A stretch of 57,301 nucleotides of DNA from a virus (taxonomy: Duplodnaviria; Caudoviricetes), in IMG/VR virus record IMGVR_UViG_3300043496_000172, positions 1 through 57,301 of that record; one strand, given 5' to 3'. Shown piece by piece: positions 1,385-54,193 of this stretch. The position numbers and the translations under genes were made by a program. A model generated the notes under the pieces. It was not told where the DNA came from. It saw only the letters and a list, made by a program, of their open reading frames with translations, and ran no database searches. Numbering within the stretch: the first letter of the stretch is position 1; every line of letters begins with the position of its first letter.

Positions 1385-1729
1385 GTGAATGATTCTTGGA
1401 AGCAAGCCCTATGGGAGGCGCTTGACACCCTACCCCCCGAGCAGCAGTTCGTTGAGTCAGGTGAACTGATCACCTGGATCAGCCACACTCTCCTTGCCGA
1501 GCTGGCCCAGCGTCGCCGGGAGGCTGTCATCACGATGCGCCAGCAGCAGGGCCTGAGTAATGCCGAGGTAGCAGAAGCTCTCGGCATGCGGCGTAGCGCC
1601 GTCGTACGCCTCGTAGAAGAAGGACAGGCTGCTCGCAAGGAGCGCCGCCATGAGGTCGAACCAGATCCTGAGGACGTACAGCAGGTTTCCTACGAGGAAG
1701 GGTTGCTAACCCCCCACCCCTCCCTGTAG
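1385..1729 (+). CDS. HTH DNA-binding protein (sigma-70 region 4-like)
   Basis: GLSNAEVAEALGMRRSAVVRLV; GAGAGG RBS. Confidence 0.8.
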   Translation: MNDSWKQALWEALDTLPPEQQFVESGELITWISHTLLAELAQRRREAVITMRQQQGLSNAEVAEALGMRRSAVVRLVEEGQAARKERRHEVEPDPEDVQQVSYEEGLLTPHPSL

Positions 1730-1820
1730 GCTCCCTTATAGCTTCACACACACCACCGAGAGACCGCACCCGGCGGGTGATTACCAAATCCCCGCCGGGT
1801 GTCGGGTACGAAAGGATGCG

Positions 1821-1985
1821 ATGAAGCAACCACAGGCAGGTTCGATGATGCCAGGCTCAGATGAGCGAGAAATCACCGAAGCGATGGAACGCTTCGGTGG
1901 GGCCGCTGAAGCCAGTATCCGGGAAATCCACCGACGGTGGAAGAAGATCATGGCTGAGGTCCATTCTCCGAAGAAGTGGAAGTAG
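1821..1985 (+). CDS. Small hypothetical protein (54 aa)
   Basis: AAAGGA RBS then ATG; fills the gap before 1992. Confidence 0.5.
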   Translation: MKQPQAGSMMPGSDEREITEAMERFGGAAEASIREIHRRWKKIMAEVHSPKKWK

Positions 1986-1991
1986 CCCGGA

Positions 1992-2291
1992 GTGCATGGA
2001 CCGCTGACCGAGATCGCCATGAAGGCGTTGGAGCGGGTACAGAAAAGATGTGACCGCGACGGATTGAGCCTCTTCGAAGAACTGAATCGGCTGGGACTCA
2101 TCGCCTCCGAGCCCCGGCTCCATGAAGCCCAGGTGTTGGCTCTGGCCAACCTGCGCGACCGGCTCCATCTCATGGATCTTCATGCCCTGTCTATGACCTT
2201 CCAGGCCGGGAACTCCAACCCGGCTGCTCCTGAAGATGTCCGGAGGCTGATTCTTGACTACATAGATAGATATATTTCATTTATTCGATAG
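1992..2291 (+). CDS. Hypothetical protein
   Basis: ORF co-directional with neighbours, ends immediately before array 1. Confidence 0.7.
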   Translation: MHGPLTEIAMKALERVQKRCDRDGLSLFEELNRLGLIASEPRLHEAQVLALANLRDRLHLMDLHALSMTFQAGNSNPAAPEDVRRLILDYIDRYISFIR

Positions 2292-2548
2292 CGACGCGAC
2301 AGGTCTACACACCGCTGCCCCAACTGACGCTGCATCATCGCCTCCGGCCTGCCCACGTGACGCTTCTAGCCAGTTCCCGTCAACCCATCTCTATCGACCT
2401 TTCTCTTCGTATCGTTTCAGATCACTCACCCGACGGAGCGGCTCCGAACCGGTCAAGCCATAACTTTTCATCGCATGTGACGGATCATCTCCCCTCTGCC
2501 CTTTGAGCGACTTGGCAGCCCACCTCATCCCGACTCTTCAGTCCCGAA
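2292..2548 (+). ncRNA. Pentamer array 1: YGAC-(NNNNC)n, about 8 units; putative guide RNA precursor
   Basis: 2431-2481 reads cGAC ggagC ggctC cgaaC cggtC aagcC ataaC ttttC atcgC atg tGAC; the RNA role is inferred. Confidence 0.7.
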
Positions 2549-2562
2549 TAAAAGGAAAGCAG

Positions 2563-3111
2563 ATGCCTGAACCGAATGTCACCGTGAAACGTGACTACGT
2601 CGCTGAAATACGACGCCTGGTAGATGAATACCGCAGTCGCCAGGAATACAACGCCGCGTCGGCTGCGATCGAGATCTACAACCAACTTCTCGGCACTGAC
2701 CGGGAGCTGCTGTACGGCTTCCTGGAAGGACAAGCTGTCCTGGCCATCCGAGGTGTGATGACCGCCGCTGATGCTGCGACCCGCTCCTACGCACGGAGCA
2801 ATGGACCACAGTCCGTGTTCTCAGATGCGGCGACCAAGGCGGAAGGAGGAGACCCTGAACCGCTACGACAGGGCTTCCTGCAAGCCTGGTACGTCGTCGA
2901 CAGTAAGTACTCCCGCAAGGAACTACGGAACATGAACTCAGACGACGTCCTGTTTGTGGCCGAACGATACCGGGAACGAGCCCGGGGAGGGCTCCGGGAA
3001 GCTGCCTTCATGGCAGCGCTGGCGAAACAAATCGGACAGCGGATGGTGGGAGAAGTGTTCAACAACGTCCAGCTGGCTGAGCTGCATACCACTGTTACTG
3101 GAAAGATCTGA
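2563..3111 (+). CDS. Hypothetical protein between arrays 1 and 2; candidate RAMP partner
   Basis: AAAGGAAAG RBS before ATG 2563; the TTG at 2503 lies within the array. Confidence 0.8.
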   Translation: MPEPNVTVKRDYVAEIRRLVDEYRSRQEYNAASAAIEIYNQLLGTDRELLYGFLEGQAVLAIRGVMTAADAATRSYARSNGPQSVFSDAATKAEGGDPEPLRQGFLQAWYVVDSKYSRKELRNMNSDDVLFVAERYRERARGGLREAAFMAALAKQIGQRMVGEVFNNVQLAELHTTVTGKI

Positions 3112-3236
3112 CTGACTCGTCGAACCTTGTCCTATCTACTCATCCGACTTGTCAACCCGGTTCCATCCGACGTCTCTTGTCCTGTCCCCACTGCTCCCGA
3201 CGACTACGCAACCCCGGTCACCTCAATCACAAATCC
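3108..3236 (+). ncRNA. Pentamer array 2, about 4 units, directly upstream of the RAMP gene
   Basis: tGAC tcgtC gaacC ttgtC ctatC tactC atc cGAC ttgtC aaccC ggttC catcC GAC gtctC ttgtC ctgtC cccaC tgctC. Confidence 0.7.
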
Positions 3237-3257
3237 TATTAAAGGAGCAACAGAGAA

Positions 3258-4049
3258 ATGGTAGCGAAAAAGTCCAAGACTGAAGCCGAAACTGAAGGCG
3301 GACGAATCTTCCCGAACGGTTACAGCGTCTTCGGTGACTTCGATGCCGAGAGTTACCAGTACAACTACCTGTGCGAACTCACCATCGCCAACCTGGTTGG
3401 CGGCGTACCCACCGACTCGCAGGTGGCCACCGGCTGGTTGAAGTCCAAGCTTCAGGAGCCAGACGACATCCTGCGGGATCTGGTCGCGAAGACGATGCTT
3501 GAGCGCAACATCACCGCCGATGAAGCGACGAGAATCGTCAACGAGCTGAAGAACCTCAACGGATTCAAGCGACTTCTTCAGGATGGTCTCGGACACGAGG
3601 AGGCCGTAGAGAAGCAGCTGATGATTGAGGGTCGCCAGATCAAGGCTGCGTTGAAGGAAGCGGTGTCGGTCGCGGTTGCCGCCGACAAGCTGGACATGAC
3701 TGGTTGGGGCAAGACCCGCAAGTGGCTGTCGACGTACTTCCCGGAGCATGTGTTCGTGGTCGAGACGGAGGTGCCCCTTTTCCAGAAGGATGAGGAAGGC
3801 AACCTGGTCCCGGTGATGGCACCGACGGACACGTTGCAGCAGTTCGTCCACACGCACCGTGGATCCTCGATCCAATACCAGGAGCGCGTGGAAGACGCCG
3901 TCATCCGGTTCACGGTCGTGGCCGACCATCCCTTCAAGGAGAAGGAATGGGCGATGATTTGGACCACGGGGCAGCGTAACGGTCTCGGAGCGTCCCGGTC
4001 GCAGGGCTACGGCACCTACAAGGTGACGCGGTGGGAGCCAACCAAGTGA
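3258..4049 (+). CDS. Stand-alone Cas7/Csm3-like RAMP-superfamily protein
   Basis: N-terminal strand plus GG (ELTIANLVGGVP); IEGRQIKAALKEA resembling IPGSSLKGALR; ERVEDAVIRFTV; C-terminal Gly loop GLGASRSQGYGTYKV; AAAGGAG RBS. Confidence 0.85.
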   Translation: MVAKKSKTEAETEGGRIFPNGYSVFGDFDAESYQYNYLCELTIANLVGGVPTDSQVATGWLKSKLQEPDDILRDLVAKTMLERNITADEATRIVNELKNLNGFKRLLQDGLGHEEAVEKQLMIEGRQIKAALKEAVSVAVAADKLDMTGWGKTRKWLSTYFPEHVFVVETEVPLFQKDEEGNLVPVMAPTDTLQQFVHTHRGSSIQYQERVEDAVIRFTVVADHPFKEKEWAMIWTTGQRNGLGASRSQGYGTYKVTRWEPTK

Positions 4050-4051
4050 TC

Positions 4052-4357
4052 ATGTTTGCCAGTTTCCAGCGGCGGGTTAACCTCCGCCGCTGGAAGCGGA
4101 TCAGCAACGGCCGGCTGTGGCTTCCACGCATAGGTCACGACACCGCTCAGCACCGCGTCCTGATCATCCCCTTGTGGCTGACACCGTTTTTCCTTCAGTT
4201 CACCCTGGGAGAATGTTTCTGTATGGCCTGCGAACGTTGCCGGCTATACGTTCTGTTGGCTCAGGAGTACGGAGAGGATTTCTCGAAAGATGTTCAACAG
4301 CACCATTATCGGGTTCGTCTGCAAGCCTTGCAGGAACGCGAGACACAGAGAATGTAA
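4052..4357 (+). CDS. Hypothetical protein with CxCxxCxxC motif
   Basis: ORF immediately after the RAMP gene; CFCMACERC. Confidence 0.6.
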   Translation: MFASFQRRVNLRRWKRISNGRLWLPRIGHDTAQHRVLIIPLWLTPFFLQFTLGECFCMACERCRLYVLLAQEYGEDFSKDVQQHHYRVRLQALQERETQRM

Positions 4358-4366
4358 GGGTGGAAC

Positions 4367-4621
4367 ATGGTGCGATTGTCACCACCGCGACCAGATCCCA
4401 TCAAACCCGGAGAAGACTCCCTGATCTGTGACAACTACGTCGACTGCGGAGAATTCCTTCGTTATGGCGGGGTGCAGGGATTTGACCGGGCGCGGGCCAA
4501 AGGCTGGCACATTTTCCAGGGGCCGGAGCGGTTGTTCCTGCTCGGCCCCCAATGTGTCGGGATGCGGTTCCGGCTACCGCCGGCCCCGCCTGTACTTCCA
4601 GGCCAGGAGGAACTGTTTTGA
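4367..4621 (+). CDS. Hypothetical protein (Cys-containing)
   Basis: Packed ORF; CDNYVDC...ARAKGWH...C. Confidence 0.6.
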   Translation: MVRLSPPRPDPIKPGEDSLICDNYVDCGEFLRYGGVQGFDRARAKGWHIFQGPERLFLLGPQCVGMRFRLPPAPPVLPGQEELF

Positions 4622-4629
4622 GTGAGTGG

Positions 4630-4938
4630 ATGCTGACCAAGCAGGAGCGTTACGTCCTGCGGCTTGTCACTGAATCGATCATCGCGGCTGTCAATGATGA
4701 TTTCGATGATCAAGGAATTTTCAACTGTTCCGATGCCTGCGACCATCCGGGGTTCTGTCCTGGTCACGAAGAGGCGCTAGAGCTTGCGGTGGCTGTATCT
4801 GAGTGGATTGAGCATCACCCGAGCATGGCCAAGATCATGTTCCGGCGGGCGCTGCTCGAACACCGAGGCCGGTTGGCGCAGATGCAGAAGGGGGCCGCAC
4901 CGTTCAGCTCGAACCAGGAAACTGGCATCAACGACTAG
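4630..4938 (+). CDS. Hypothetical protein
   Basis: Packed ORF, start moved to ATG 4630. Confidence 0.6.
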   Translation: MLTKQERYVLRLVTESIIAAVNDDFDDQGIFNCSDACDHPGFCPGHEEALELAVAVSEWIEHHPSMAKIMFRRALLEHRGRLAQMQKGAAPFSSNQETGIND

Positions 4939-4955
4939 ATGACTCGGCTTCTATG

Positions 4956-4985
4956 TTGCCGTGACCCCTACCCCTGGGGTATAGC
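4956..4985 (+). promoter_or_regulatory. Putative promoter TTGCCG-18-TATAGC with CCCCTGGGG in the spacer
   Basis: Intergenic; precedes AGGAGG RBS of 5006; motif shared with other promoters. Confidence 0.55.
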
Positions 4986-5005
4986 TGGAAGCCTAGGAGG
5001 AAACA

Positions 5006-5329
5006 GTGAACACGAACGAGATAGTGCTACCCGACGTTCTCAACGGCTTCAGCACCCAGGACCTGGTGGAGCTAGGAGCCCAGCTCACCGGTACCGGATT
5101 CACCGGAGTCGAATCCCGAGCCCTCATCGGCATGATCGAGCAGACCGCGAAGCAGGTCACCCTAGCCATGGTACCGCCGCTCCTCGATCAGGTCCGGCGC
5201 ATCAATGAGGCCCGGATGATGACGGTGTTCCAGCAGCTGCGCCTGCTACCGAACCAGTTCGGCTTCATCAGCCGCGAGCGAGTGATGCAAATACTTCAAA
5301 CGGTGTATTCCACGCCACCCAACGTGTAG
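5006..5329 (+). CDS. Hypothetical protein
   Basis: Strong AGGAGG RBS before GTG. Confidence 0.75.
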   Translation: MNTNEIVLPDVLNGFSTQDLVELGAQLTGTGFTGVESRALIGMIEQTAKQVTLAMVPPLLDQVRRINEARMMTVFQQLRLLPNQFGFISRERVMQILQTVYSTPPNV

Positions 5330-5335
5330 GAGTGA

Positions 5336-5683
5336 GTGATCATGACCGAGGAACGGATGTCCGCTCCTGACATGCTCGAATCAGCTGCGGACCTCATCGA
5401 AAACGTAGGCCATGCACGGAGATCCTATAAGTCTTTTGATGCGGAAATGCGTGTCACCGGATATTGCATCACGGGTGCAATCTACTTACGAGGTAACACC
5501 TTATTTGAAACAAAAGAAGCCATAGCAGCCGTGCGAATGGAAATCCTTCGACGCTTCCCGCATCGATACGATGGTGACATCGCCGTGTGGAACGACTTTC
5601 ACGCCAGTGACGGTGCCGAAGTAGTCGATGTGCTACGTCACGCTGCCAAGAATCTGCGAAACGAAACAGGAGAACAGAAATGA
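5336..5683 (+). CDS. Hypothetical protein (DUF6197-like actinophage family)
   Basis: LESAADLIE..G...YCITGAI...IAVWND...EVVDVLRHAA pattern. Confidence 0.65.
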   Translation: MIMTEERMSAPDMLESAADLIENVGHARRSYKSFDAEMRVTGYCITGAIYLRGNTLFETKEAIAAVRMEILRRFPHRYDGDIAVWNDFHASDGAEVVDVLRHAAKNLRNETGEQK

Positions 5684-5886
5684 AGAAGACCCTACTGATC
5701 ACCGGCAGCCTCGTCGCGGTGTATGTCCTCGTCCGCAACCGCAAGCTGATCGCCGACAAGGCCGCCGACATCGTCAACGCGGCGACGGAGAAGCTTGAAC
5801 TACTGAAGAGCAAAGTCGGCGAGGATGTCAGCGCCTTCCTAGCGGATCCCTCCTCCGGAGAGGCTCGCACTCGACAGGGCTTCTAG
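5680..5886 (+). CDS. Small membrane-anchored protein
   Basis: N-terminal hydrophobic helix; ATGA overlap. Confidence 0.7.
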   Translation: MKKTLLITGSLVAVYVLVRNRKLIADKAADIVNAATEKLELLKSKVGEDVSAFLADPSSGEARTRQGF

Positions 5887-5893
5887 GTTATCC

Positions 5894-5924
5894 GACCCGG
5901 TCACTGTGTGTGGCCGGGTCTTTC
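5894..5924 (+). terminator. Hairpin, possible terminator or processing site before array 3
   Basis: GACCCGGTCAC/GTGGCCGGGTC stem followed by TTT. Confidence 0.5.
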
Positions 5925-6398
5925 GACACATCGGATCTGATCGGCACAGCCCATACCTCATGACAGGACAGGTCTACGTTGTACGGTCCCTCTCTCTTCC
6001 TATGACTCGACCCCTCTCCGCACGCCTAAACATTTCCGACACCACACCTCACGCCTATACGCTTCCGACGCCACACCCCATGTCAGTGCGACAACTCGGT
6101 ACTGATCACCCTCCCCACATCCTTCGACCTTTCATATCACGTCCCTTCGGCCCGCTGTGACTTCACGTGTCGGATCCCCTCAAGCGACGTTCCAATCCCG
6201 ATCTTCGCGACATATCGTCCCTGGTCCAACCTATTGACGTGTCGGCCCTAACATCCACCCACTCCGTCCCCCTCCGACTGACTTCTCGACGCACATACAC
6301 GCCAACCCAACCCCTCGTCGACTTCTCGACACAACTCCTCCCGCATTGACTTTTCAACTCCCCTCACGTCGACTTCCCATCCCATTTCTGTCCCCGTC
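5924..6398 (+). ncRNA. Pentamer array 3, about 15 units
   Basis: cGAC acatC ggatC tgatC ggcaC agccC atacC tca tGAC ... cGAC ctttC atatC acgtC ccttC ggccC gctg tGAC ttcaC gtgtC ggatC ccctC. Confidence 0.75.
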
Positions 6399-6409
6399 TA
6401 GGAGAAACC

Positions 6410-6793
6410 GTGAAGAAAGACCCACATGCCACCGAACCGAAGGTGGAGCTGAACCACGAAACGTACCGGCTGTATGTCGAGGCACTCGACAACAGTGTGG
6501 CCTGGAAGAAAGAGGCTGAACGGCTTCAGGGCCTGCTGAACGAGGAAATCGGGGACGCCTACGCCGGCACGATCGACGGTCACAAGGTAGTGACACATCG
6601 ACCGATACAGACCTGGCGCATCAACGAGCTGGTCCGCGACTATCCAGAGCTGACTGCGCGCTACGTCGAACAGGTCACTGTGGAGAAGCTCGATATCCAC
6701 GAATTTCGGGCACATCACAAGGAAATCGCGGACAAATACCAGTCACGAAGCTTCCGGAACCTAGGCCCAGGCGAGGAAGTAGATCTAGCATGA
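6410..6793 (+). CDS. Hypothetical protein resembling the C-terminal region of YqaJ-type phage nucleases
   Basis: AGGAG RBS; EIGDAYAGTIDGHKVVT ... KYQSRSFR pattern. Confidence 0.55.
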   Translation: MKKDPHATEPKVELNHETYRLYVEALDNSVAWKKEAERLQGLLNEEIGDAYAGTIDGHKVVTHRPIQTWRINELVRDYPELTARYVEQVTVEKLDIHEFRAHHKEIADKYQSRSFRNLGPGEEVDLA

Positions 6794-6797
6794 TCCG

Positions 6798-7286
6798 ATG
6801 GACCAGTTCACTGTCACCGTCTACGGTTTGCCGGCACCGCAGGGCTCGAAGCGTTTCATGGGCATGTCGAAGGCTGGTAAAGGGATCATCGTCAACACGA
6901 GCACTGCCCTGACACCGTGGCGTAACGAGGTAGTGTCTGTGTCAACGAGGGAGCTGGACGCAATGGGGCGTCCGGCTCCCTTTTCTTGTGCGGTGATCCT
7001 GGAGGCGCATTTCAGTTTCACGAGACCCAAGTCGGTCAAGAGATCCAACCGTCCACATATGTCGATTGCTCCGGATTTGTCGAAACTTGTACGAAGCACC
7101 GAAGACGGACTCAAGGACGCGGGCGTTTTCGTGGACGATGCACTGATTGTGGCCATCTACTGCTCCAAGCAGTACGTGGACGAAGGGGCCTACAGCCTGG
7201 ACCGGCAGGGCTGTCGCATCGTCGTACGTCCGGTAGTACCATGGGAGATGCCCCCAGGGAGGGGGAGAGTTGAGCTGGAGGCATAA
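6798..7286 (+). CDS. rusA: RusA-family Holliday junction resolvase
   Basis: PAPQGSK, PDLSKLVRSTEDGL and DDALIV motifs. Confidence 0.92.
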   Translation: MDQFTVTVYGLPAPQGSKRFMGMSKAGKGIIVNTSTALTPWRNEVVSVSTRELDAMGRPAPFSCAVILEAHFSFTRPKSVKRSNRPHMSIAPDLSKLVRSTEDGLKDAGVFVDDALIVAIYCSKQYVDEGAYSLDRQGCRIVVRPVVPWEMPPGRGRVELEA

Positions 7287-7636
7287 TGACAGCCGGCAAC
7301 GCAGTCCTCATCTTGGTGACCGCGCTCCTGAGTCATGTCAGCGGCTTCTGTATGGCCCGCTGGGACCAGTGGAAATTACAGCGCAAGATGAGACCCATCC
7401 CGCTCCCCGGCATGAGCCAGGAGGAGCACGAGACTCAAGTTTTCATCGACAAGCTACATGACACCACCCAGGACGATCTCGCCCTGGACCAGTACGAACC
7501 CAAGACAGAACGGCAACGACGGGCAAAAGTCCTGGCCAGTATCGAACCTGCACAGATCACCTCAGCTGCACACCTGCGGTACGACGCGATGCGTCGAATC
7601 CAGGACGCACTTATCGAACGTCAACTTTCGAAGTAG
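7286..7636 (+). CDS. Hypothetical membrane-anchored protein
   Basis: TAATG overlap; N-terminal hydrophobic segment. Confidence 0.65.
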   Translation: MTAGNAVLILVTALLSHVSGFCMARWDQWKLQRKMRPIPLPGMSQEEHETQVFIDKLHDTTQDDLALDQYEPKTERQRRAKVLASIEPAQITSAAHLRYDAMRRIQDALIERQLSK

Positions 7637-7649
7637 AAACGAGAAGCTT

Positions 7650-7871
7650 TTGAAGCAGAAGACATTCCGGGCATTCGGCTACTGCACGGAATGCCGGAAA
7701 TACATGTACCTGAGCCGTAGCGCGGCAAAAAAGGTCAGTGCACAGCATCATGGGGAACACAAGAGCGAATACCGTTGCCCTATCAATGACAATTTCTGGC
7801 ATGTAGGTGGCCTGGATCCCCGAGTCATAGAAGGGAAGACCAGCCGACGTCGCCGATACGATGCAGCCTGA
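7650..7871 (+). CDS. Small zinc-finger-like protein
   Basis: CTECRK...H...YRCP...WHVG; start uncertain (TTG 7650). Confidence 0.6.
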   Translation: MKQKTFRAFGYCTECRKYMYLSRSAAKKVSAQHHGEHKSEYRCPINDNFWHVGGLDPRVIEGKTSRRRRYDAA

Positions 7872-8249
7872 CGTGCCCGCCCAGCCCGCCACCTGTACGA
7901 CAATGCAGCCGCCGTTCCAGTCACATCACCCGACACATCGCGCCCGGTCACGTCGACGCACCCCTTCTTCTCGACCCTTAGCCTTACCGTCCCACACCGA
8001 CACACCTCGCCAGTTCGAAACCGATCCCTACGACTACTCGCCTTCCATCCCAACTGACTCGCCAACCCGCTCTCCACCCCCACTGACTCGCCAAGTCGGC
8101 TCCACGCCAGGCCACCCGACTATCCGACTCCCGCCTGTTCGACTACCCGCCTCCATCGCCTACTCACTTCCCACCTGTTCGACCGTCCATCGCCGTTCCG
8201 ATCCTGTTCGACCATTCTTCTCGATGCGCACTCAGGTCACTCCCCCTCA
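7869..8249 (+). ncRNA. Pentamer array 4, about 12 units, at the junction of the converging gene blocks
   Basis: cGAC acacC tcgcC agttC gaaaC cgatC cctaC GAC; tGAC tcgcC aagtC ggctC cacgC caggC caccC GAC. Confidence 0.7.
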
Positions 8250-8260
8250 CGCCGAGGCCC

Positions 8261-8557
8261 CTACCGACGGTAGCGGCCTCGGTTTGTGTGTGGTGGAAGG
8301 GTGTCCCAGATAGGAGTCGGAACAGGTTGCGGCCACAGAACCTGTTCCATCATGTCCATGGCCCGACGGTGCGCCCACCACTGATCCCGAGCAGAGACGT
8401 CGAAGGAGACTTCCAGCGTCTGGTTCGCGGGCTCTTCGACTTCGGGACTGTTGAACCACCAGTGCCGGTCACACCACAGGTACATGGCCTCCAGGATCGA
8501 GCTGGAGGCCAGATCTGAGGCCAACACGGTGAACGTGTAGCGACGGTGGCAGGTCAC
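8261..8557 (-). CDS. Hypothetical protein
   Basis: Last ORF of the minus-strand block; 4-nt overlap with 8554-8895. Confidence 0.65.
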   Translation of the reverse strand: MTCHRRYTFTVLASDLASSSILEAMYLWCDRHWWFNSPEVEEPANQTLEVSFDVSARDQWWAHRRAMDMMEQVLWPQPVPTPIWDTLPPHTNRGRYRR

Positions 8558-8895
8558 TTCGAGTCCAGGTCGACGGGCGCAGACGGGATCAGCATCGACA
8601 GCTGAGCAATCCGCTCGTGGAGCTGCTTGTTGTCTTCCCGTAGCTCAAGCAGCTGCCCGTTGGACAGCTGCTTGATCTCGGTCGAGTCACGTTTCAGGTC
8701 ATTGACCTTCGCCCAGCCAAACGCACCCGCCATCAAAAGGACAACGGGTGCGAGACCGGACATGATGCCTACAACATCCAGGCCAATGGCGGCCAACCAG
8801 ATAACTGTGGTGGCCAGGATGACGGACAGGCCGAGGATAAGGACCACCTGTGGTGGGGTCACATTTTTCATTTCGGCTGCGACCAGTGGAGACAT
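8554..8895 (-). CDS. Two-TM membrane protein, holin-like
   Basis: Two hydrophobic helices followed by a coiled-coil tail. Confidence 0.5.
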   Translation of the reverse strand: MSPLVAAEMKNVTPPQVVLILGLSVILATTVIWLAAIGLDVVGIMSGLAPVVLLMAGAFGWAKVNDLKRDSTEIKQLSNGQLLELREDNKQLHERIAQLSMLIPSAPVDLDSK

Positions 8896-8951
8896 GAAAA
8901 CGTCACACCTTTAGTATGTCAAATACATCCCTCTTGCAGGCAGTATGTCAT

Positions 8952-9266
8952 TTAGCTGGGCAAGTAGCCGATTTTGCGGTGCCGCTCGGCGATCTTCTCC
9001 GCAGTTTCCAGGATGACTTCCTCAGCCTTGAAGCCGAGGCTCTCTATCACCATCAAGGCACACATGACCACGTCGCCCAGTTCCCGGGCTACGTCAGCCT
9101 TGCTGCCGTAGTAGCCCTTCCGAGGCTTACCGCCAGTCATTCCCAGCCAGGCATCAGAGACTTCGCCGACCTCCTCGACCAACATGAGGATCCGATCCGG
9201 AATGTCTACGTTGTTATCACTGAGCCAACGGGCAGTAATCCGGGCCAGTGGATACAGATCGTTCAT
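8952..9266 (-). CDS. MazG-like nucleotide pyrophosphohydrolase
   Basis: LVEEVGEV...ELGDV motifs. Confidence 0.88.
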   Translation of the reverse strand: MNDLYPLARITARWLSDNNVDIPDRILMLVEEVGEVSDAWLGMTGGKPRKGYYGSKADVARELGDVVMCALMVIESLGFKAEEVILETAEKIAERHRKIGYLPS

Positions 9267-41075: not shown

Positions 41076-41366
41076 CTACTCCCTGTCAGCCGCTCGAAGA
41101 ATCAATGCGCACGCCATTGACCCGGCCGGGATAGAGAGCACAGCCAGGAACCAGACGGGGTGCCAGTAATAAACGACAGGAAGCAGGATCGAAAACCACA
41201 TCGACAGGCACCACGGCGCACAGAGAATGAGTTTCGAAATCCAGGCGGAGGTTCCGAAGCGGTTCAGGATGGCGCGACGGAACGGAAGAGTGAGGGCGTC
41301 CTCAGCGATGAGACGGCTCATGCGCGCTGCTGCGAGCGTGGCCGTGATCAAAGCGAGTATAAGCAC
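41076..41366 (-). CDS. DUF1360-like membrane protein
   Basis: ARMSRLIAED...PFR...CAPWCLSMW; typical position before portal. Confidence 0.75.
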   Translation of the reverse strand: MLILALITATLAAARMSRLIAEDALTLPFRRAILNRFGTSAWISKLILCAPWCLSMWFSILLPVVYYWHPVWFLAVLSIPAGSMACALILRAADRE

Positions 41367-41424: not shown

Positions 41425-41454
41425 TTGCCACCGTCTCCGCCCCAGGGGTAGGGT
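41425..41454 (+). promoter_or_regulatory. Putative SigA-type promoter TTGCCA-18-TAGGGT with CCCCAGGGG, pointing into array 5
   Basis: Matches TTGNNN/TANNNT; array starts about 10 nt downstream. Confidence 0.65.
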
Positions 41455-41463
41455 GCAGAGGTT

Positions 41464-42319
41464 CGACCTGACCCTTCTTCTCAGCGTCTACCCGACCCCG
41501 GTCACACCGACTCACCTACCCAGCACACCCCATCCGACCCTGTCAGTCGACTCGCCGGCCCTCCTTCACCTCTGACTAGCCCTCTCTGCTCCAGTCCGAT
41601 CCGTTCGACTCTCCTTTTCCCTGCCATTTCCAACCGCTTCCTACGACTGCCTCTTCCAGTTCGGATCGACCCTGTCAGTCGACACTGTGGCCCATACCCG
41701 CTCGTTGTCCTCTCGCATCTTCCGACCGAGCACTCCACCTCACCACCGTCTCCTCTCACCTATCGATCGACTGCCCTCTTCGCCCCCTTTCCTTCTGACG
41801 ACACGTCTCAACCCCCTCCATGCACACGCCGACTACACCCAGCCTCTCGTATCCCATCTATGCCTATCGACAAATCAGCTCGTATCCATACCCATCCCAT
41901 CGACGAATCAGATCGCCTCGCAGCTGCCCAACCGACACGCCGTGCCGTTCTCCGACCGCTCCGCACTGACATTCCACTTCATCCTCATCTCGGCGCGGTC
42001 CCGATCCGACGGAGCGCATCACCTCGCAACCGTTTCTGACCCGTCCCACCTCTGCTGACTTCCCCGGTCACCCCTGAGCACTTCCATTGACAAACCCGCA
42101 CGTATCAGTCCTCCTCGACTTCGCACGTCATGCTCGCCTCTCGTCACTTCAGCTGACTCTTCTGCCGGCCACTTCCCACGCCAGCTCTCCCGACCTGCCG
42201 TTACGCAACTTCCCTGCCCAGTCCAGCATCCCTGCCGACTTCCCACCGACCTCTCACCTCCGACGACGATGCGATCCCGGTCATCAACTTCCCGCATCGC
42301 CTCGACCACCCAGTCCCTC
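41464..42319 (+). ncRNA. Pentamer array 5, about 28-30 units, antisense to the structural operon
   Basis: 41830-41904: cGAC tacaC ccagC ctctC gtatC ccatC tatgC ctatC GAC aaatC agctC gtatC cataC ccatC ccatC GAC. Confidence 0.8.
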
Positions 42320-44584
42320 TCAACCCAGTCCCCCCCACTGTGGTTGAAGATTCGACAGGTCGTAGTACGACTGATCCAGGTTCCACTCTTGCGAGGAAGG
42401 GCTAGCGATTCTCATGATGCGACGTTCACCGGCCATCAGATGCAGTACGCCGTGAACCATGGCATCCATGCGGTCTGGCGACTCCCGAGTGGACTCGGGA
42501 GCGAAGATGACCATTTCATTTTCGAGTTCATCCCACTCGCCGACGAGGTGGAGTTTTCCTTGCTCACAACGCATGGCAACTGGTTCGGCTCTTGTCCGTT
42601 TGCCATGTTTCGCATGCACAGCTTTCATTGAAGGAGTGCTATGTTCAGGGAACAGTCCGAGGTTCATCGATTCTTTGAAGGCATCCTCCAGAACCTCAGC
42701 CAGATACCGTTTACCAAGGTTCTCTTCATAAACCAGAATGTCAGCGTTCCACTTGGCTACTGCCCGCCACGCTGCAAGAGCTGCTGTTCGACCACTCTGC
42801 TCAACGGAGGCGTCTTCAAGTACATAAATGTCGTTGTTCACGGTCCGCGCGACTACCACGATGCCGAACAGGTCGTCTTCTCCTGTCAGGTTCGGGTCAA
42901 CACCAACCACGGTCGAGATGATGTCCTCGGGGATCACGGTCACCCGGCCTCGGATTATGTCCATCCGTTTGAATAGGCCACCGACACCAAGCTCCAACAG
43001 TTTCCCGTACAGCTCCTGCTGGCCAAGGTCCGTGTCCGCATACCGGATCTTCAGTTCCCGCAGGACATGCGAGGACAGGTTCATCGCGTTGTCGAACGTG
43101 GAACCACCCATCACGTGGATCGTCCCGTCGTCCCGCTTCACCCACTCCTGCAACAGCTTGATCGGTTTCGGGGTAGTGGTGGCGAAGCAGCGAGGATGGT
43201 CGTCGATCAGGTCGGTACGCAAGGAAGGAAGGATCCCCTCATACCAGCTCTCATACGACTTCGGCCATTTGCAGTTATGTACCAGGAGACCGCCCGCGAA
43301 GAACTGCGGAACTCCCTGCACAGTCAGGTCATAGACCGGAACTGGATGGCAGCCCTTGTGCACGGCGACGACGCGCGTCGGCTTGCCGACGTCCGGCGAA
43401 TCGGCCTGCACACAGAGGGGTGCAGTACTTTGCTCGCATACCTGTGCTGAAAAATGTTTCGCCACATTCTGCGCACACCACTGCCCGGGGTTGTCGCTGT
43501 GTCCACATGTTTCGCAGCCCCCGACTCGTTCGATCAGATCGGTCAGCCACCCAGGCAGCGTCGGTTCTACTGATGGCAGTGAGTCTGCGGTGCTCTGAGA
43601 CGGTGAGGCATTCGAGGTTGTCCGGCCGGTTGTCCCAGCGCTTCCCGTTGATGTGGTTGATCTCGTGGTCTGCTGGGATTTCTCCGTAGAGCTTGGCCCA
43701 GAGACTTCGGTGGAGCAGGGATCCGCTGCGGTTGAGGTGGTATCCCATGCGTTTGTTGAAGTACCAGCGTTCGCCGTCCCAGTCGTAGAAGGCTGGCGCT
43801 TCGCTGGGTACTGGTTCTTTTGCGGAAGCCATGTCACCATGGTATCGCCAGGTTGTACCTGATCTGCGCGGATCCAGCCGTGCTCCTCGGTCCATACACG
43901 ATGATTCGGCGTGACTGTGACGGCGGCATCTTCGGTCAGGAGAACCAGAACTTCGGCTGACTTCTCAGTGAGTCCAGCGGATTGGACCCGACGGTAGCCA
44001 TGGAGAGTCGTAACGTAATCCTGCGTAGTAACGCATTCGATCGGAACAACGCCTCGGTCGGTGGCGATAGCGGATCCGTAGGCGATGCAGATCTCGTCTA
44101 CCCAAGCACCCGCAGCGTTGTATCCACGCCCTACGTCTTCGTCATCCGCGCCCTCGGCGTAGATCCTGGAGCCGTTCGGGAACAAGACCATCGGCCTCGG
44201 GGACTGCTTGTACCGGAAGTCGACCCCACGACGGGTAAGTACACGCAGGAGCCCAGCTGGTCCCTCCATACAGATGGTGCGTGTATCCGCGAGCGTTTCC
44301 CCAATCAAGAGCCATTCCGTTGGTTGCTGGTTTCGGTCGAATGGGTGCTGAAGAACTTTCTCTACGAGCCATTCGGCTCCAGCTCGACTCTTTCCCCATC
44401 CTCGGCCGGCGAGTGCGAGTGCAACGAGCCAGTTTCCCGGTGGTGGCACCTGCTCGGGACGTGACACCCACCACCATTCACCTCGGTTGATTTCTTCAAC
44501 GAGTTGGAGGGGCAAGGATTCCAGCCAGTCCAAGCGCTCGCGCTCTGGAAGCAGGGCTACTCGTTGCGCGGCAGATAGGGACAT
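42320..44584 (-). CDS. terL: Terminase large subunit (intein-containing)
   Basis: Walker A AGRGWGKSR, Walker B WVDE, TTTPKP, QELYG, VGVDP, SPDRMDA. Confidence 0.95.
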   Translation of the reverse strand: MSLSAAQRVALLPERERLDWLESLPLQLVEEINRGEWWWVSRPEQVPPPGNWLVALALAGRGWGKSRAGAEWLVEKVLQHPFDRNQQPTEWLLIGETLADTRTICMEGPAGLLRVLTRRGVDFRYKQSPRPMVLFPNGSRIYAEGADDEDVGRGYNAAGAWVDEICIAYGSAIATDRGVVPIECVTTQDYVTTLHGYRRVQSAGLTEKSAEVLVLLTEDAAVTVTPNHRVWTEEHGWIRADQVQPGDTMVTWLPQKNQYPAKRQPSTTGTANAGTSTNAWDTTSTAADPCSTEVSGPSSTEKSQQTTRSTTSTGSAGTTGRTTSNASPSQSTADSLPSVEPTLPGWLTDLIERVGGCETCGHSDNPGQWCAQNVAKHFSAQVCEQSTAPLCVQADSPDVGKPTRVVAVHKGCHPVPVYDLTVQGVPQFFAGGLLVHNCKWPKSYESWYEGILPSLRTDLIDDHPRCFATTTPKPIKLLQEWVKRDDGTIHVMGGSTFDNAMNLSSHVLRELKIRYADTDLGQQELYGKLLELGVGGLFKRMDIIRGRVTVIPEDIISTVVGVDPNLTGEDDLFGIVVVARTVNNDIYVLEDASVEQSGRTAALAAWRAVAKWNADILVYEENLGKRYLAEVLEDAFKESMNLGLFPEHSTPSMKAVHAKHGKRTRAEPVAMRCEQGKLHLVGEWDELENEMVIFAPESTRESPDRMDAMVHGVLHLMAGERRIMRIASPSSQEWNLDQSYYDLSNLQPQWGGLG
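43274..44089 (-). mobile_element. Intein (272 aa) inserted just after Walker B
   Basis: Starts CIAYGSAIAT; block B VTPNHRVW; ends VYDLTV...FFAGGLLVHN followed by +1 Cys. Confidence 0.93.
43329..43832 (-). CDS. HNH homing endonuclease nested out of frame within the intein
   Basis: LLHRSLW...GEIP...EINHINGKRWDNRPDNLECL...H; C-terminal CAEC...YCTPLC. Confidence 0.85.
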   Translation of the reverse strand: MASAKEPVPSEAPAFYDWDGERWYFNKRMGYHLNRSGSLLHRSLWAKLYGEIPADHEINHINGKRWDNRPDNLECLTVSEHRRLTAISRTDAAWVADRSDRTSRGLRNMWTQRQPRAVVCAECGETFFSTGMRAKYCTPLCAGRFAGRRQADARRRRAQGLPSSSGL

Positions 44585-44623
44585 GTGTCCACATTAGGAC
44601 TACCTGGTCCGTAAAAGAATCAC

Positions 44624-44652
44624 TTGCAATTTACCCCAGGGGTGGGTACGGT
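44624..44652 (+). promoter_or_regulatory. Putative promoter TTGCAA-17-TACGGT with CCCCAGGGG
   Basis: Divergent intergenic region between terL and L28. Confidence 0.65.
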
Positions 44653-44684
44653 GGAGCTACCACGGAAACCGAAGGGATCCCTTG

Positions 44685-45112: not shown

Positions 45113-45186
45113 GGGTCTATAGCTCAATGGGAACGAGCCCGGAACTTTTTTGACCGGAGATGTGGGTTCAAATCCCACTGGATCCA
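45113..45186 (+). tRNA. tRNA-Lys(TTT)-like with atypical anticodon arm
   Basis: Acceptor GGGTCTA/TGGATCC; D-stem GCTC/GAGC; T-arm GTGGG-TTCAAAT-CCCAC; anticodon loop CTTTTTT; no encoded CCA. Confidence 0.75.
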
Positions 45187-45302
45187 CGAGGCAGGGCGGC
45201 ATGGCCACGAAGAAACTGTGATAAGTCGCAGCATCTTCGACCGATCCGCGAGCGTGTCCCCCGTATACCGGAGCCGCCCTGCTTCACCAGGAAAGGGAAC
45301 CC

Positions 45303-52146: not shown

Positions 52147-53028
52147 GTGGCAGAAGGTGTGGACTACTCATTCGCACATCCCAGCCCCTCTTCCTTGAAG
52201 ACGGCCGGGAAAACGTTCGCGCTGCGCTACATCGGGCCAGGATCCGCCGGGAAGCTGCTCACAGCTTCAGAGCGGGACCAGTTGTGGGCGCAGGACATCT
52301 CCATCGGGTTTCTGGCTGAAGGAGCCGCAGGAGACATGTTGCGGGGCGCAGCGCTCGGCAAGGCTCATGCCCAGCTGGCCGAAACGCACCGGATGGCTCT
52401 CGGTGCGCCCGCGCTTCCCATCTACTTCGCCGCCGACGTGGACATGGTCGCCGGCAACCTCCCCGCCATCACTGCCTACTGCAACGCTGCTGCCGGTGTC
52501 CTCGGACGGGGACGGGTTGGCGTGTACGGCGAGTACGACGTGATGGGCTGGCTCAAGGAACGCGGCATCGCCACCTGGTTCTTCCAAACATATGCCTGGA
52601 GTGCCGGCAAATGGTTCAGCGGCAACCATATAGAGCAGTACCGCAACAATCAGGCACTTGGTGGCGGAACTGTCGATCTATGTCGCAGTAAAATGGATAA
52701 CTTTGGACAATGGGTACGTCCCGGATCTTTGCAGCCAGGAGTTGATGAAATGGTCATGTATGTGTGGTGTGACGGAGACCTGTGGGGCAGCACGGGAGCT
52801 GAACGATTCAAGGTGGCCAACCCCACCCAGGCCGAGGCCATCAAGCGAGTCTGGGGCGAATATGGCTGGGCCTGGAAGGACAACCAGGTGACACCAGACG
52901 AACTGGGCGGGTTCGGTGTCGTCGTTCCGCCGCCGGCAGGACTGCCATCTTCTGACGCTGAAACACTTGCGATGTTGGAGCAACTGGCGGATGGTTTGGA
53001 AGCCCTTGCCGCTGCTATACGCGGCTAA
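52147..53028 (+). CDS. Endolysin, DUF1906 (GH25-like) glycoside hydrolase
   Basis: GVDYS, FALRY, PIYFAAD, GVYG, FQTYAWS. Confidence 0.85.
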   Translation: MAEGVDYSFAHPSPSSLKTAGKTFALRYIGPGSAGKLLTASERDQLWAQDISIGFLAEGAAGDMLRGAALGKAHAQLAETHRMALGAPALPIYFAADVDMVAGNLPAITAYCNAAAGVLGRGRVGVYGEYDVMGWLKERGIATWFFQTYAWSAGKWFSGNHIEQYRNNQALGGGTVDLCRSKMDNFGQWVRPGSLQPGVDEMVMYVWCDGDLWGSTGAERFKVANPTQAEAIKRVWGEYGWAWKDNQVTPDELGGFGVVVPPPAGLPSSDAETLAMLEQLADGLEALAAAIRG

Positions 53029-53044
53029 GCAGAGAAAAGGAATC

Positions 53045-54193
53045 ATGTACATGAACCCACGAAAACGTATCGTGCTGTCCACTGCCGCTGTTTCAGCGGC
53101 AGCCCTGATTCTGGGGGCCTGTTTCCTCACGCCAGCCAACGCCAGCGTCACGACACAGACTCAGGTGGCACGAGACAATCTGGCGAACTGTCAACTCCTG
53201 GCCTCGAACTCCACCGGTTCGCAGCTCACCAGAGCTAACCAGTGCATCACTGATCAGAACAAGATCCTGCGACTTCTCGGCGGGTCACCTTCACCTACCC
53301 CTACGCCTCCGGCGACCACTCCCCCCACTGCCAGCCCCACCGCGACCGTGACTCCGACCCCGACCGCGACGACTACTCCTCCTCCGTCCGGTGACTTTCC
53401 GAACGCGGACAACACAGGCGTTCCCGCTGGTACGGTCCTGACTCCATGGGATGGCACGTGCAGCGGTGGCGTTGTGGCGATCACGACCCCGAACCTGCTG
53501 GTAGATGCCCGCAGTTTTCCCTGCAATGTGTCCATCCGGGCCAGCGGTGTTCGGATCACCCGCAGCCGGATCAACGGCTGGATCGACAACACCGACCGGT
53601 CGGGAACCTCGTTCGCGCTGGTCGACTCCGAGGTATCGATCTCCACAGTGGTGGAGCTGACGGTGGTGGGAAACCACGACTTCAGCATGTTGCGGGTTGA
53701 AGTCACCGGCGGAAACCGGGGCGTGTACTGCCAGTGGTCCTGTGACATCCGGGACTCCTGGATTCACGGCCAGCGCATCCAAAGCGTCTGGCACGCTTCA
53801 GCTGTTCGCATGGAACAGCAGCTCACCCTGGTGCACAACACTCTGGTCTGTGACGCACAGCCGGCCAGCGAGGAAGGGACGTGCTCGGCCTCGTTGACGG
53901 GGTACGGCGACTTCGCTCCGGTGCGGGACAACCTGATCCAGGGCAACTACTTCGCTCCGACAGTGTTCGCGGCGTACTGCGCCTACGGCGGTTCCTCGCG
54001 GAACAAGCCGTTCTCGGACGGTGCCATGAACAACCGGTTCATCGATAACGTGTTCGGACGAGGTGACACCACGGTTAGCCAGGACTGTGCAAAATACGGT
54101 CCGGTTGGTGACTATGACCGCTCGAAGCCAGGCAATGTCTGGTCAGGTAACAAGTTCACTGACGGGGTTGTGATCCCGGTACCTGCGTTCTAG
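53045..54193 (+). CDS. Secreted protein with Pro/Thr linker and parallel beta-helix domain
   Basis: Signal peptide ending ANA; PTPT linker; FPNADNTGVP; IRDSWIH, IQGNYF repeats. Confidence 0.75.
   Translation: MYMNPRKRIVLSTAAVSAAALILGACFLTPANASVTTQTQVARDNLANCQLLASNSTGSQLTRANQCITDQNKILRLLGGSPSPTPTPPATTPPTASPTATVTPTPTATTTPPPSGDFPNADNTGVPAGTVLTPWDGTCSGGVVAITTPNLLVDARSFPCNVSIRASGVRITRSRINGWIDNTDRSGTSFALVDSEVSISTVVELTVVGNHDFSMLRVEVTGGNRGVYCQWSCDIRDSWIHGQRIQSVWHASAVRMEQQLTLVHNTLVCDAQPASEEGTCSASLTGYGDFAPVRDNLIQGNYFAPTVFAAYCAYGGSSRNKPFSDGAMNNRFIDNVFGRGDTTVSQDCAKYGPVGDYDRSKPGNVWSGNKFTDGVVIPVPAF

Follow-up and report, generated by a model that had tools for sequence, protein, structure and literature searches.

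The subject of this analysis is a 57.3-kb soil virus record, estimated to be 87% complete (IMG/VR record IMGVR_UViG_3300043496_000172, positions 1 to 57,301; this whole stretch of DNA is referred to below as the window), and in particular a locus in its left arm at which a gene for a 263-aa protein (P0001; positions 3258–4049, + strand) is accompanied by C-rich, non-coding tracts. We conclude that this locus very probably encodes an RNA-guided, DNA-binding system of the VIPR family, in a soil phage of actinobacteria, with the window's five such tracts as its arrays of short guides. Direct support for this conclusion comes from a periodic code in the tracts, the RAMP fold of the modeled protein, its remote homology to the Vipr protein of phage phiSUSP1 (SUSP1), the co-occurrence of gene and arrays, and the matches of two guides of related phages under a rule in which two bases of each five-base step (N1N2) are read and one target base is skipped. 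VIPR systems have themselves been reported in two preprints of April 2026 (bioRxiv 10.64898/2026.04.26.720920 and 10.64898/2026.04.26.720927) and in a third in October. (Here and below, statements about these preprints, and about the language-model survey cited further on, refer to the passages of them that were available.)

The periodic code of the arrays

The five non-coding tracts are rich in C and poor in G (C 37–47%, G 16–20%) on the + strand. Four of them stand amid the genes of the left arm: T1 (2292–2563), supported by its parse, composition, lag-5 signal and the shuffle test, with 9 GAC-headed units of NNNYC pentamers; T2 (3112–3257), with 5 such units, reaching the ribosome-binding site of the vipr-like gene that encodes P0001; T3 (5887–6409), with 21 GAC sites and a terminator-like hairpin at its start (5894–5920, followed by TTT); and T4 (7872–8249), with 13 GAC sites, beyond the final + strand gene of that arm. 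The fifth and longest, T5 (about 41440–42340, ~900 nucleotides (nt); 33 GAC sites, in an array placed at 41465–42340), lies 38 kb off within a block of leftward genes. An earlier note on this DNA had described C-rich tracts around a RAMP-like gene and a fifth at 41.5 kb, and both their number and their composition were borne out. No additional array was found elsewhere in the window, and Rfam matched no family in the arrays. (A peak of C skew at 53290–53390 corresponds to a Pro/Thr-rich linker within the open reading frame at 52916–54193 and holds no array.)

The window contains ~81 GAC-headed units, a larger number than the 65–70 that had been counted by hand, each with 3–8 pentamers and mostly with C or T before the GAC. 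At offsets +5, +10, +15 and +20 from GAC, the base is C at 88, 87, 75 and 80% of the tract sites (n = 73, 69, 63 and 59, respectively). When the first three offsets were pooled, C was present at 194 of 243 (79.8%), as compared with 43.2 ± 3.8% (maximum 57%) in 1000 dinucleotide-preserving shuffles of the tracts, and C occupied all three offsets at 48 of the 81 GAC sites, as compared with 4.7 ± 2.1 (maximum 15) in the same shuffles. GAC itself is over-represented in the tracts (81 sites versus 57 ± 4 in shuffles). Outside the tracts, the corresponding offsets from 1063 same-strand GAC sites carry C at a frequency of 29%. The signal does not depend on GAC as an anchor: every one of the five tracts shows a positive C-C autocorrelation at lag 5, and the anchor-free lag-5 signal is 0.533 as compared with 0.428 ± 0.012 in shuffled tracts. 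Immediately 5' of the fixed C the base is a pyrimidine at 74–81% of sites and seldom A. Both the C enrichment relative to shuffled controls and the preference for a pyrimidine at the fourth pentamer base thus agree with what the earlier note had proposed.

At least four flawless in-phase pentamers are present in 37 of the window's units. Many others are slipped or degenerate, the GAC-to-GAC spacing being 3 mod 5 in just 30 of 76 cases. The frequencies of the N1N2 dinucleotides are near-uniform (0.040–0.087), and no useful correlation was found between N1N2 composition and codon usage. In T3, positions 6021–6077 hold adjacent near-duplicate units with 85% identity and a 29-nt period, a pair that suggests that arrays grow as units are duplicated locally and then diverge. 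Contigs from four soil DNA runs represent a relative that is 98% identical to the window over positions 1500–9000, arrays included, with 135 letters differing. A look for RNA runs containing the window's sequence returned none.

P0001 and its relatives

The AlphaFold2 model of P0001, built from an alignment of 75 sequences, has a predicted local distance difference test (pLDDT) score of 88.6 and a predicted template modeling (pTM) score of 0.83. The model contains a first beta strand at residues 35–47, a helix at 125–141, a long thumb-like beta-hairpin at 191–222, and a glycine-rich loop at 242–252. A Foldseek search with this model retrieved 94 PDB chains at E ≤ 0.001 (best E 4.3e-7), and the matches listed are entries of CRISPR effector complexes (type VII, Csm3, Cmr and Craspase). 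Consistent with this, VIA-align, which is independent of Foldseek, found 30 chains with Z ≥ 8, the first 29 of which are all CRISPR RAMP chains; the top match is Csm3 (9g9a_D; Z 11.9, root-mean-square deviation 3.6, 156 residues aligned). The entry for the SUSP1 Vipr, 36pp, was not among the matches in the fold library, whose entries run to 2026-04-08. As modeled, P0001 is a Cas7-type RAMP, as the earlier note had supposed.

Neither Pfam, PHROGs nor NCBIfam has a family for P0001 (best PF20754 at E 0.073, and one PHROG at E 0.21), PADLOC gave weak matches to Cmr6 and to the Cas6 G-loop (E 0.012 and 0.028), and in the ESM Atlas P0001 matched solely viral hypothetical proteins.

As a reference for Vipr we used a 195-aa gene of phage phiSUSP1 (P0271) that lies next to YNNGG runs; these runs adjoin two small genes on the same strand. 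P0271 has H17, R138, D177, W178 and R179, matching the residues named in the structure preprint, and the profile of its family (A4, 34 sequences) matches PDB chain 36pp_D, "SUSP1 Vipr protein", with an E of 1e-81. Because of this match and of the named residues in P0271, we take A4 to be the true Vipr family. Profile-profile comparison of the P0001 family (A3, 75 sequences) with A4 gave a probability of 93.9% at E 1.6e-7, over 138 columns that extend from helix 1 of the RRM to the G-loop, and a local rerun of the comparison gave 93.7% over 181 columns. Judged from these profiles, P0001 is remotely homologous to Vipr of SUSP1; the earlier note had named VIPR as a phage RAMP system of which the present one could be a variant. 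In the alignment, the residues that hold guanine in SUSP1 (R138, D177 and W178) correspond to Q208, A245 and S246 of P0001, and R179 of the SUSP1 pyrimidine pocket corresponds to R247, which is invariant across the family.

The P0001 family is large. Among 1778 candidates, 1204 proteins belong to it at E ≤ 0.001, and all are unannotated; clustering at 90% leaves more than 1200 proteins, and clustering at 50% identity leaves 363 representatives. Its members are carried by actinobacterial phages and by one cyanophage, and the glycine-rich C-terminal loop is nearly invariant among them. A nucleotide search of positions 2292–8249 against the phage collection gave no match, and tblastn in that collection gave one, Microcystis phage Mae-JY09. 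We collected 49 loci from IMG/VR, that of Mae-JY09, and 8 in bacterial genomes; the duplicates L031 and L051 and a weak 26-residue match (L002) were removed, to give 56 loci.

Clusters of GAC-(NNNNC)n are present in 54 of these 56 homologue loci, so that arrays do accompany the homologues, as the earlier note had expected. The array is directly upstream of the gene, on the gene strand, in 45 loci, directly downstream in 9, and on both sides in 4; it is farther off on the same strand in 2 loci and on the opposite strand in 2 (L043 and L050). The two loci that have none are L023 and L042, in the latter of which the gene is at the contig edge. Arrays are present with each of the eight copies from bacterial genomes, and these genomes all belong to Actinomycetota (Nocardiopsis, Streptomyces, Streptacidiphilus, Pedococcus and others).

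A position weight matrix for the family, made from 1206 GAC sites, reads CC-GAC and then NNN(C/Y)C. The previous unit remains in phase up to the CC, so that GAC adds three bases between one run of pentamers and the next. Many relatives, L040 with its 1.8-kb array among them, have CCC or NCC as the fixed part, relative to which the N-Y-C of the window is relaxed. Strict parsing yielded 536 units of 4–12 steps (mode 5–6), of which 529 are on the gene strand. Note that in many relatives (e.g., L040, 4150–5950) the first step after GAC starts with T-A, which gives TAGTC on the other strand. TAGTC is also the fixed pentamer of an unrelated array with an 8-nt period (cluster 8,581 of bioRxiv 10.64898/2026.10.21.760802), and this may be a coincidence. 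In the two most distant viral relatives, L050 (5480–5680) and L043 (5320–5657), the array has the opposite orientation, its C-rich strand leading away from the gene, and a separate promoter-like site lies between the array and the vipr-like gene. (A test of array orientation relative to neighbors that was based on open reading frames was dropped, gene calls being unreliable in high-GC DNA.)

One other gene accompanies the arrays. Between T1 and T2 lies a gene for a 182-aa protein, P0393 (2563–3111, + strand by its translation). In 28 of 58 loci a homologue of P0393 precedes the array and the vipr-like gene in the same orientation. P0393 is the only other conserved neighbor, any other being common to at most 9 of the 58 loci. 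No Pfam, PHROG, NCBIfam or PADLOC family was found for it, and we regard it as a candidate accessory protein. Tandem Repeats Finder and Rfam revealed no CRISPR-like repeat, and Pfam and PHROG scans of 13 neighboring proteins revealed no Cas family. The earlier note's description of the RAMP as "solo" needs some correction in view of this conserved partner. The layout is that of a minimal VIPR system: a viral record with a vipr-like gene and a conserved partner, and no cas genes or CRISPR array found.

Target reading and alternative explanations

Every unit was searched against the collected loci, with their arrays masked (~0.58 Mb), under 24 rules made up of six position pairs and skips of 0–3 bases. 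Among the 69 units with at least 8 steps there were two perfect full-length matches, both obtained when N1N2 were read and one base was skipped; the remaining 23 combinations of pair and skip gave none for these 69 units, nor did any of the 24 reversed-order controls. Shuffling of the order, repeated 1559 times, produced a single match in 21 cases and two matches in no case. In the first case, an 8-step guide of L017 matches at 16 of 16 read bases the antisense of the codons for K-V-A-E-G-W-L-K in the vipr-like gene of 11 other loci, and at 15 of 16 in two further loci. The match extends over exactly one unit, from GAC to the next GAC, which fits the idea, put forward in the earlier note, that GAC marks guide boundaries. 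In the second case, a 9-step guide of L011 matches at 18 of 18 the Walker A codons of the terminase large subunit of L018 (phrog_2, E 3e-39). In both matches the skipped base is the wobble position of the codon. A protein-level search with 289 guides and 270 family proteins gave 7 matches, as compared with ~2 expected, and only that of the 8-step L017 guide stands out. The notion that a gapped target is read is thus upheld for two guides of related phages, but not in the form in which all of the variable bases are read: in these two cases only N1N2 count, with a 1-nt skip. These findings suggest that the two-read, one-skipped rule has been conserved in this branch across very deep protein divergence. 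That the matched sites are conserved codons in a rival's vipr-like gene and in the Walker A motif of a terminase fits the role in inter-phage warfare that has been proposed for VIPR.

With respect to the site in the vipr-like gene, the gene of L017 itself differs only at the last read pair, where it has Arg in place of Lys (L017, 5925–5967 and 6094–6120). In the window the site is at 3426–3449. P0001 has Q-V-A-T-G-W-L-K there, as does P0002, its closest relative, and most of the family has K-V-A-E-G-W-L-K. By hand count, the P0001 site agrees with the L017 guide at 12 of 16 letters, and the change in P0001 and P0002 is possibly an escape from such guides.

We envisage the system as follows. 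A unit consists of GAC and 3–8 five-base steps, in each of which N1N2 are informative, the penultimate base is usually a pyrimidine and the last is a fixed C. The arrays would be transcribed along with the early genes, most likely as C-rich RNA, and GAC would be where the transcripts are cut or where guides are bounded. The 263-aa RAMP would then coat the guide as a filament with one protomer per step, each protomer sequestering the fixed letters and presenting N1N2; by analogy with the published SUSP1 structure, one subunit would grip each C. Such a filament may bind double-stranded DNA in which the N1N2 pairs are matched and a single base is passed over between one pair and the next, this base being the wobble position where the target is coding. 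Binding would silence genes of competing phages or prophages.

Several results weigh against the interpretation of the locus as a VIPR system. Profiles A1 and A3 found nothing significant among PDB sequences (Csm4 appeared at E ~0.7), the sequence profile alone fails to reach the Vipr PDB entry, and a Vipr hidden Markov model gives only 10–23 bits on members of the P0001 family. In addition, hhalign found no match between A1 and the single SUSP1 sequence, and only the two deeper profiles matched each other; the relation between P0001 and Vipr is too remote to be within reach of profile-to-sequence methods. The canonical GGY is absent from the arrays. The L017 guide agrees with its own phage's gene (N-V-A-E-G-W-L-R) at 14 of 16 read bases, a mismatch that could be self-avoidance by one codon change, or else autoregulation. 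The window's 32 longer units gave no match above shuffled controls in the ~0.58 Mb of related loci and the window. When the window's longest unit, the 8-step unit at 2432, was used to scan IMG/VR, 5 matches were obtained, three of which are one element; we judged these to be chance matches, in contigs of 40–46% GC without an open frame. Perfect-match scans of IMG/VR with four long guides of related loci gave 0, 0, 0 and 2 contigs, the latter two being a single element whose meaning is uncertain. When one mismatch was tolerated in units of 7 or more steps there was no excess, 8 real units being matched as compared with 11.5 ± 2.8 shuffled ones, and with perfect matches required there were 2 real ones as compared with a mean of 0.28, other rules also giving 0–3. 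Lastly, units in the window are short, with 8–16 read bases each; those of 4–6 steps have only 8–12, a low specificity for single guides.

The absence of identified targets for the window's own units in these searches, together with the shortness of the units, is also what would be expected if the tracts were DNA elements or mRNA leaders (iterated binding sites, replication or packaging signals, or C-rich spacers) to which the RAMP-like protein is unrelated. We consider this very improbable, since binding-site iterons would not be expected to combine a 5-nt period with fixed letters around a near-uniform N1N2, since the arrays accompany a Vipr homologue in nearly all of the loci, from actinophages to a Microcystis phage, and since two guides perfectly match foreign phage genes under the published VIPR rule alone. 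Fainter still is the prospect that the period-5 signal is an artefact of composition or parsing. The tracts are indeed C-rich, and a trinucleotide of our choice served as the anchor for parsing. However, dinucleotide shuffles never came near the observed values, the lag-5 signal was detected without an anchor, and the identical grammar recurs in 54 other loci; the shuffle tests led us to reject this explanation.

A further question is which strand of the arrays is the functional RNA. Matches to targets cannot separate the two strands, both readings predicting the same double-stranded site. We think that it is probably the C-rich strand. This strand is the sense strand of the gene in 52 of the 56 loci, and in 45 loci the array runs right up to the vipr-like gene's ribosome-binding site, which leaves no space for a divergent promoter and implies that a C-rich RNA is made at least as an mRNA leader. 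The layout in SUSP1 is alike, in that the YNNGG runs are on the vipr strand, and the equivalent here is a C-rich RNA. Moreover, in the window T1–T3 lie between rightward genes, and T4 is followed by a terminator-like hairpin (8251–8291, + strand; –29.9 kcal/mol) with a T-run on the + strand only, which would close a transcription unit containing T1–T4. T5 is preceded on the + strand by a promoter-like motif (41425–41454: TTGCCA, 18 nt ending in CCCCAGGGG, then TAGGGT) that is shared with the starts of two gene blocks.

The alternative, which we hold to be possible but distinctly less likely, keeps the locus within the VIPR family and takes the G-rich strand, antisense to the vipr-like gene, to be the functional RNA. 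Guides would then have the form (G-R-N-n-n)n with a short constant 3' GTC, and the system would fall into published alternative classes (NNNGG or NNNNG, with staggered arrays) instead of being a C-anchored variant. In this register each step on the – strand still consists of three roughly fixed letters and then two that are read, with G first as in GGY/NN, and the fixed CC of the relatives is GG. Preprint 10.64898/2026.04.26.720920 describes NNNGG, YNNNG and NNNNG repeats as well as abutting, "staggered" vrRNAs, and the order of published vrRNAs, repeats followed by a constant 3' tail, is reproduced only when the G-rich strand is read. In addition, T5 is inside a – strand block and T4 is just past the end of that block with no – strand terminator, so that read-through would yield the G-rich strand; and the arrays of L043 and L050 are inverted relative to the gene. 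Set against this are the orientation of the arrays in the great majority of loci, the layout in SUSP1, the + strand signals around T1–T5, and the replacement of the guanine contacts R138, D177 and W178 by Q208, A245 and S246, with R179 retained as the invariant R247. There is in our estimation an even chance that the C-rich sense RNA is the guide and that this branch has swapped the letters that are gripped, from two guanines to cytosine and pyrimidine, with the pyrimidine pocket kept, the guanine contacts lost and the 5' GAC as the sole punctuation. Leader and intergenic transcripts could then supply a single phage with ~80 guides, all of them very short.

As for the setting of these features, genes in the window run rightward from 1 to 8.3 kb, leftward from 8.5 to 44.6 kb, and rightward beyond. 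T5 is C-rich on the + strand, and the genes on either side of it (41076–41366 and 42320–44584) are on the – strand. The promoter-like motif consists of a TTGCC-like hexamer, a spacer ending in CCCCWGGGG, and then TA. Its other copies are at 4955–4985 (+), before the gene at 5006, and at 44613–44660 (–), before the leftward block (44632); with three copies only, the motif is a putative promoter. A fourth, weaker copy, at 39493 (–), is intragenic. Generic scans for sigma-70 promoters and terminators gave nothing exceeding shuffles. The early-gene neighbors, listed together with their coordinates in corresponding order, are a sigma-70 region 4/helix-turn-helix protein, a DUF6197 protein and a RusA-like Holliday junction resolvase (1385–1729, 5336–5683 and 6798–7286). 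A tRNA-Lys with anticodon TTT (45113–45187, +) is situated just past the divergent region at 44.6 kb.

Relation to known systems

The Type II VIPR system of SUSP1 consists of Vipr, vap1 and four vrRNAs (10.64898/2026.04.26.720920 and 10.64898/2026.04.26.720927). In VIPR, the NN of each repeat is read and one base is skipped, at the wobble position in codons, and guides are also aimed at other VIPR systems. CRISPR effectors have been proposed to descend from VIPR, which has also been put forward as a minimal DNA binder that can be programmed. Seven types (I–VII) and 670 Vipr proteins have been published, and the P0001 branch may already be among these types.

The window's locus shares with SUSP1 a lone small phage RAMP gene flanked on the gene strand by non-coding arrays with a 5-nt period, steps in which fixed letters are followed by two that are read, targets that are read with one base skipped at the wobble position and lie in competing phages, other VIPR genes included (here both for two guides of related phages), and a second small conserved gene alongside. 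The two differ in their fixed letters, G-G-Y in SUSP1 and N-Y-C here (C-C-C or N-C-C in relatives); in guide length, 9–16 steps as compared with 3–8 (4–12 family-wide, mode 5–6); in punctuation, a long structured 3' tail as compared with a bare GAC between abutting units; and in number, four vrRNAs as compared with ~80 units in this phage. Vipr of SUSP1 has 195 aa, whereas P0001 has 263 with a helical insertion at ~56–98, and the residues that contact guanine are replaced. The partner P0393 lies upstream and has no detectable family similarity. The locus is thus a variant of VIPR in its fixed letters (as read on the gene strand), its guide length, its GAC punctuation and its number of guides. 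The novelty that the earlier note left to be checked accordingly extends to a variant but not to a new class, VIPR having already been described in the 2026 preprints.

The P0001 branch is a large and unannotated part of the VIPR family. If the C-rich strand is the RNA, then recognition of the repeat and reading of the target would be separable modules. On that reading the branch would represent an orthogonal VIPR chemistry of natural origin, which has a repeat alphabet to itself and follows a strategy of "many short guides", and might provide an orthogonal scaffold for multiplexing, perhaps alongside GGY systems without cross-talk.

Repeats in the April preprints are given as GGY/NN, YNNGG, NNNGG, YNNNG or NNNNG (10.64898/2026.04.26.720920 and 10.64898/2026.04.26.720927). 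The alternative-repeat VIPR systems (NNNGG, YNNNG and NNNNG, admitted there as "a related consensus"; 10.64898/2026.04.26.720920) resemble the present arrays in having one or two fixed letters and abutting guides, and the G-rich strand of the arrays gives NNNGG-like or NNNNG-like repeats. They differ in that here the fixed C is on the sense strand, and in that the neighboring Y (R on the other strand) fits none of the published strings exactly. In a survey with a genomic language model, 21 VIPR-like clusters were reported, with motifs such as GAC/NN, CAC/NN, WGT/NN and TGH/NN (bioRxiv 10.64898/2026.10.21.760802). These arrays have in common with ours the five-base period, fixed letters other than GGY, and a position beside Vipr-like folds. 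There, three fixed letters plus NN are repeated ten times, whereas here GAC is punctuation between NNNYC runs; the available passages of the October VIPR preprint and of the survey contain no C-anchored or GAC-punctuated form.

Finally, P0001 shares with the Cas7 proteins of class 1 CRISPR systems (Csm3, Cmr4, type VII Cas7 and Csf2) the RRM core, the thumb-like hairpin and the glycine-rich loop, at Z 10–12, and is likewise expected to place one subunit on each fixed step of guide RNA. The locus differs from those systems in that no CRISPR array, cas or adaptation genes, or repeat-spacer structure was found at it. In class 1 CRISPR the step is 6 nt and the spacer is read contiguously, whereas here the step is 5 nt and each step contributes two informative bases.

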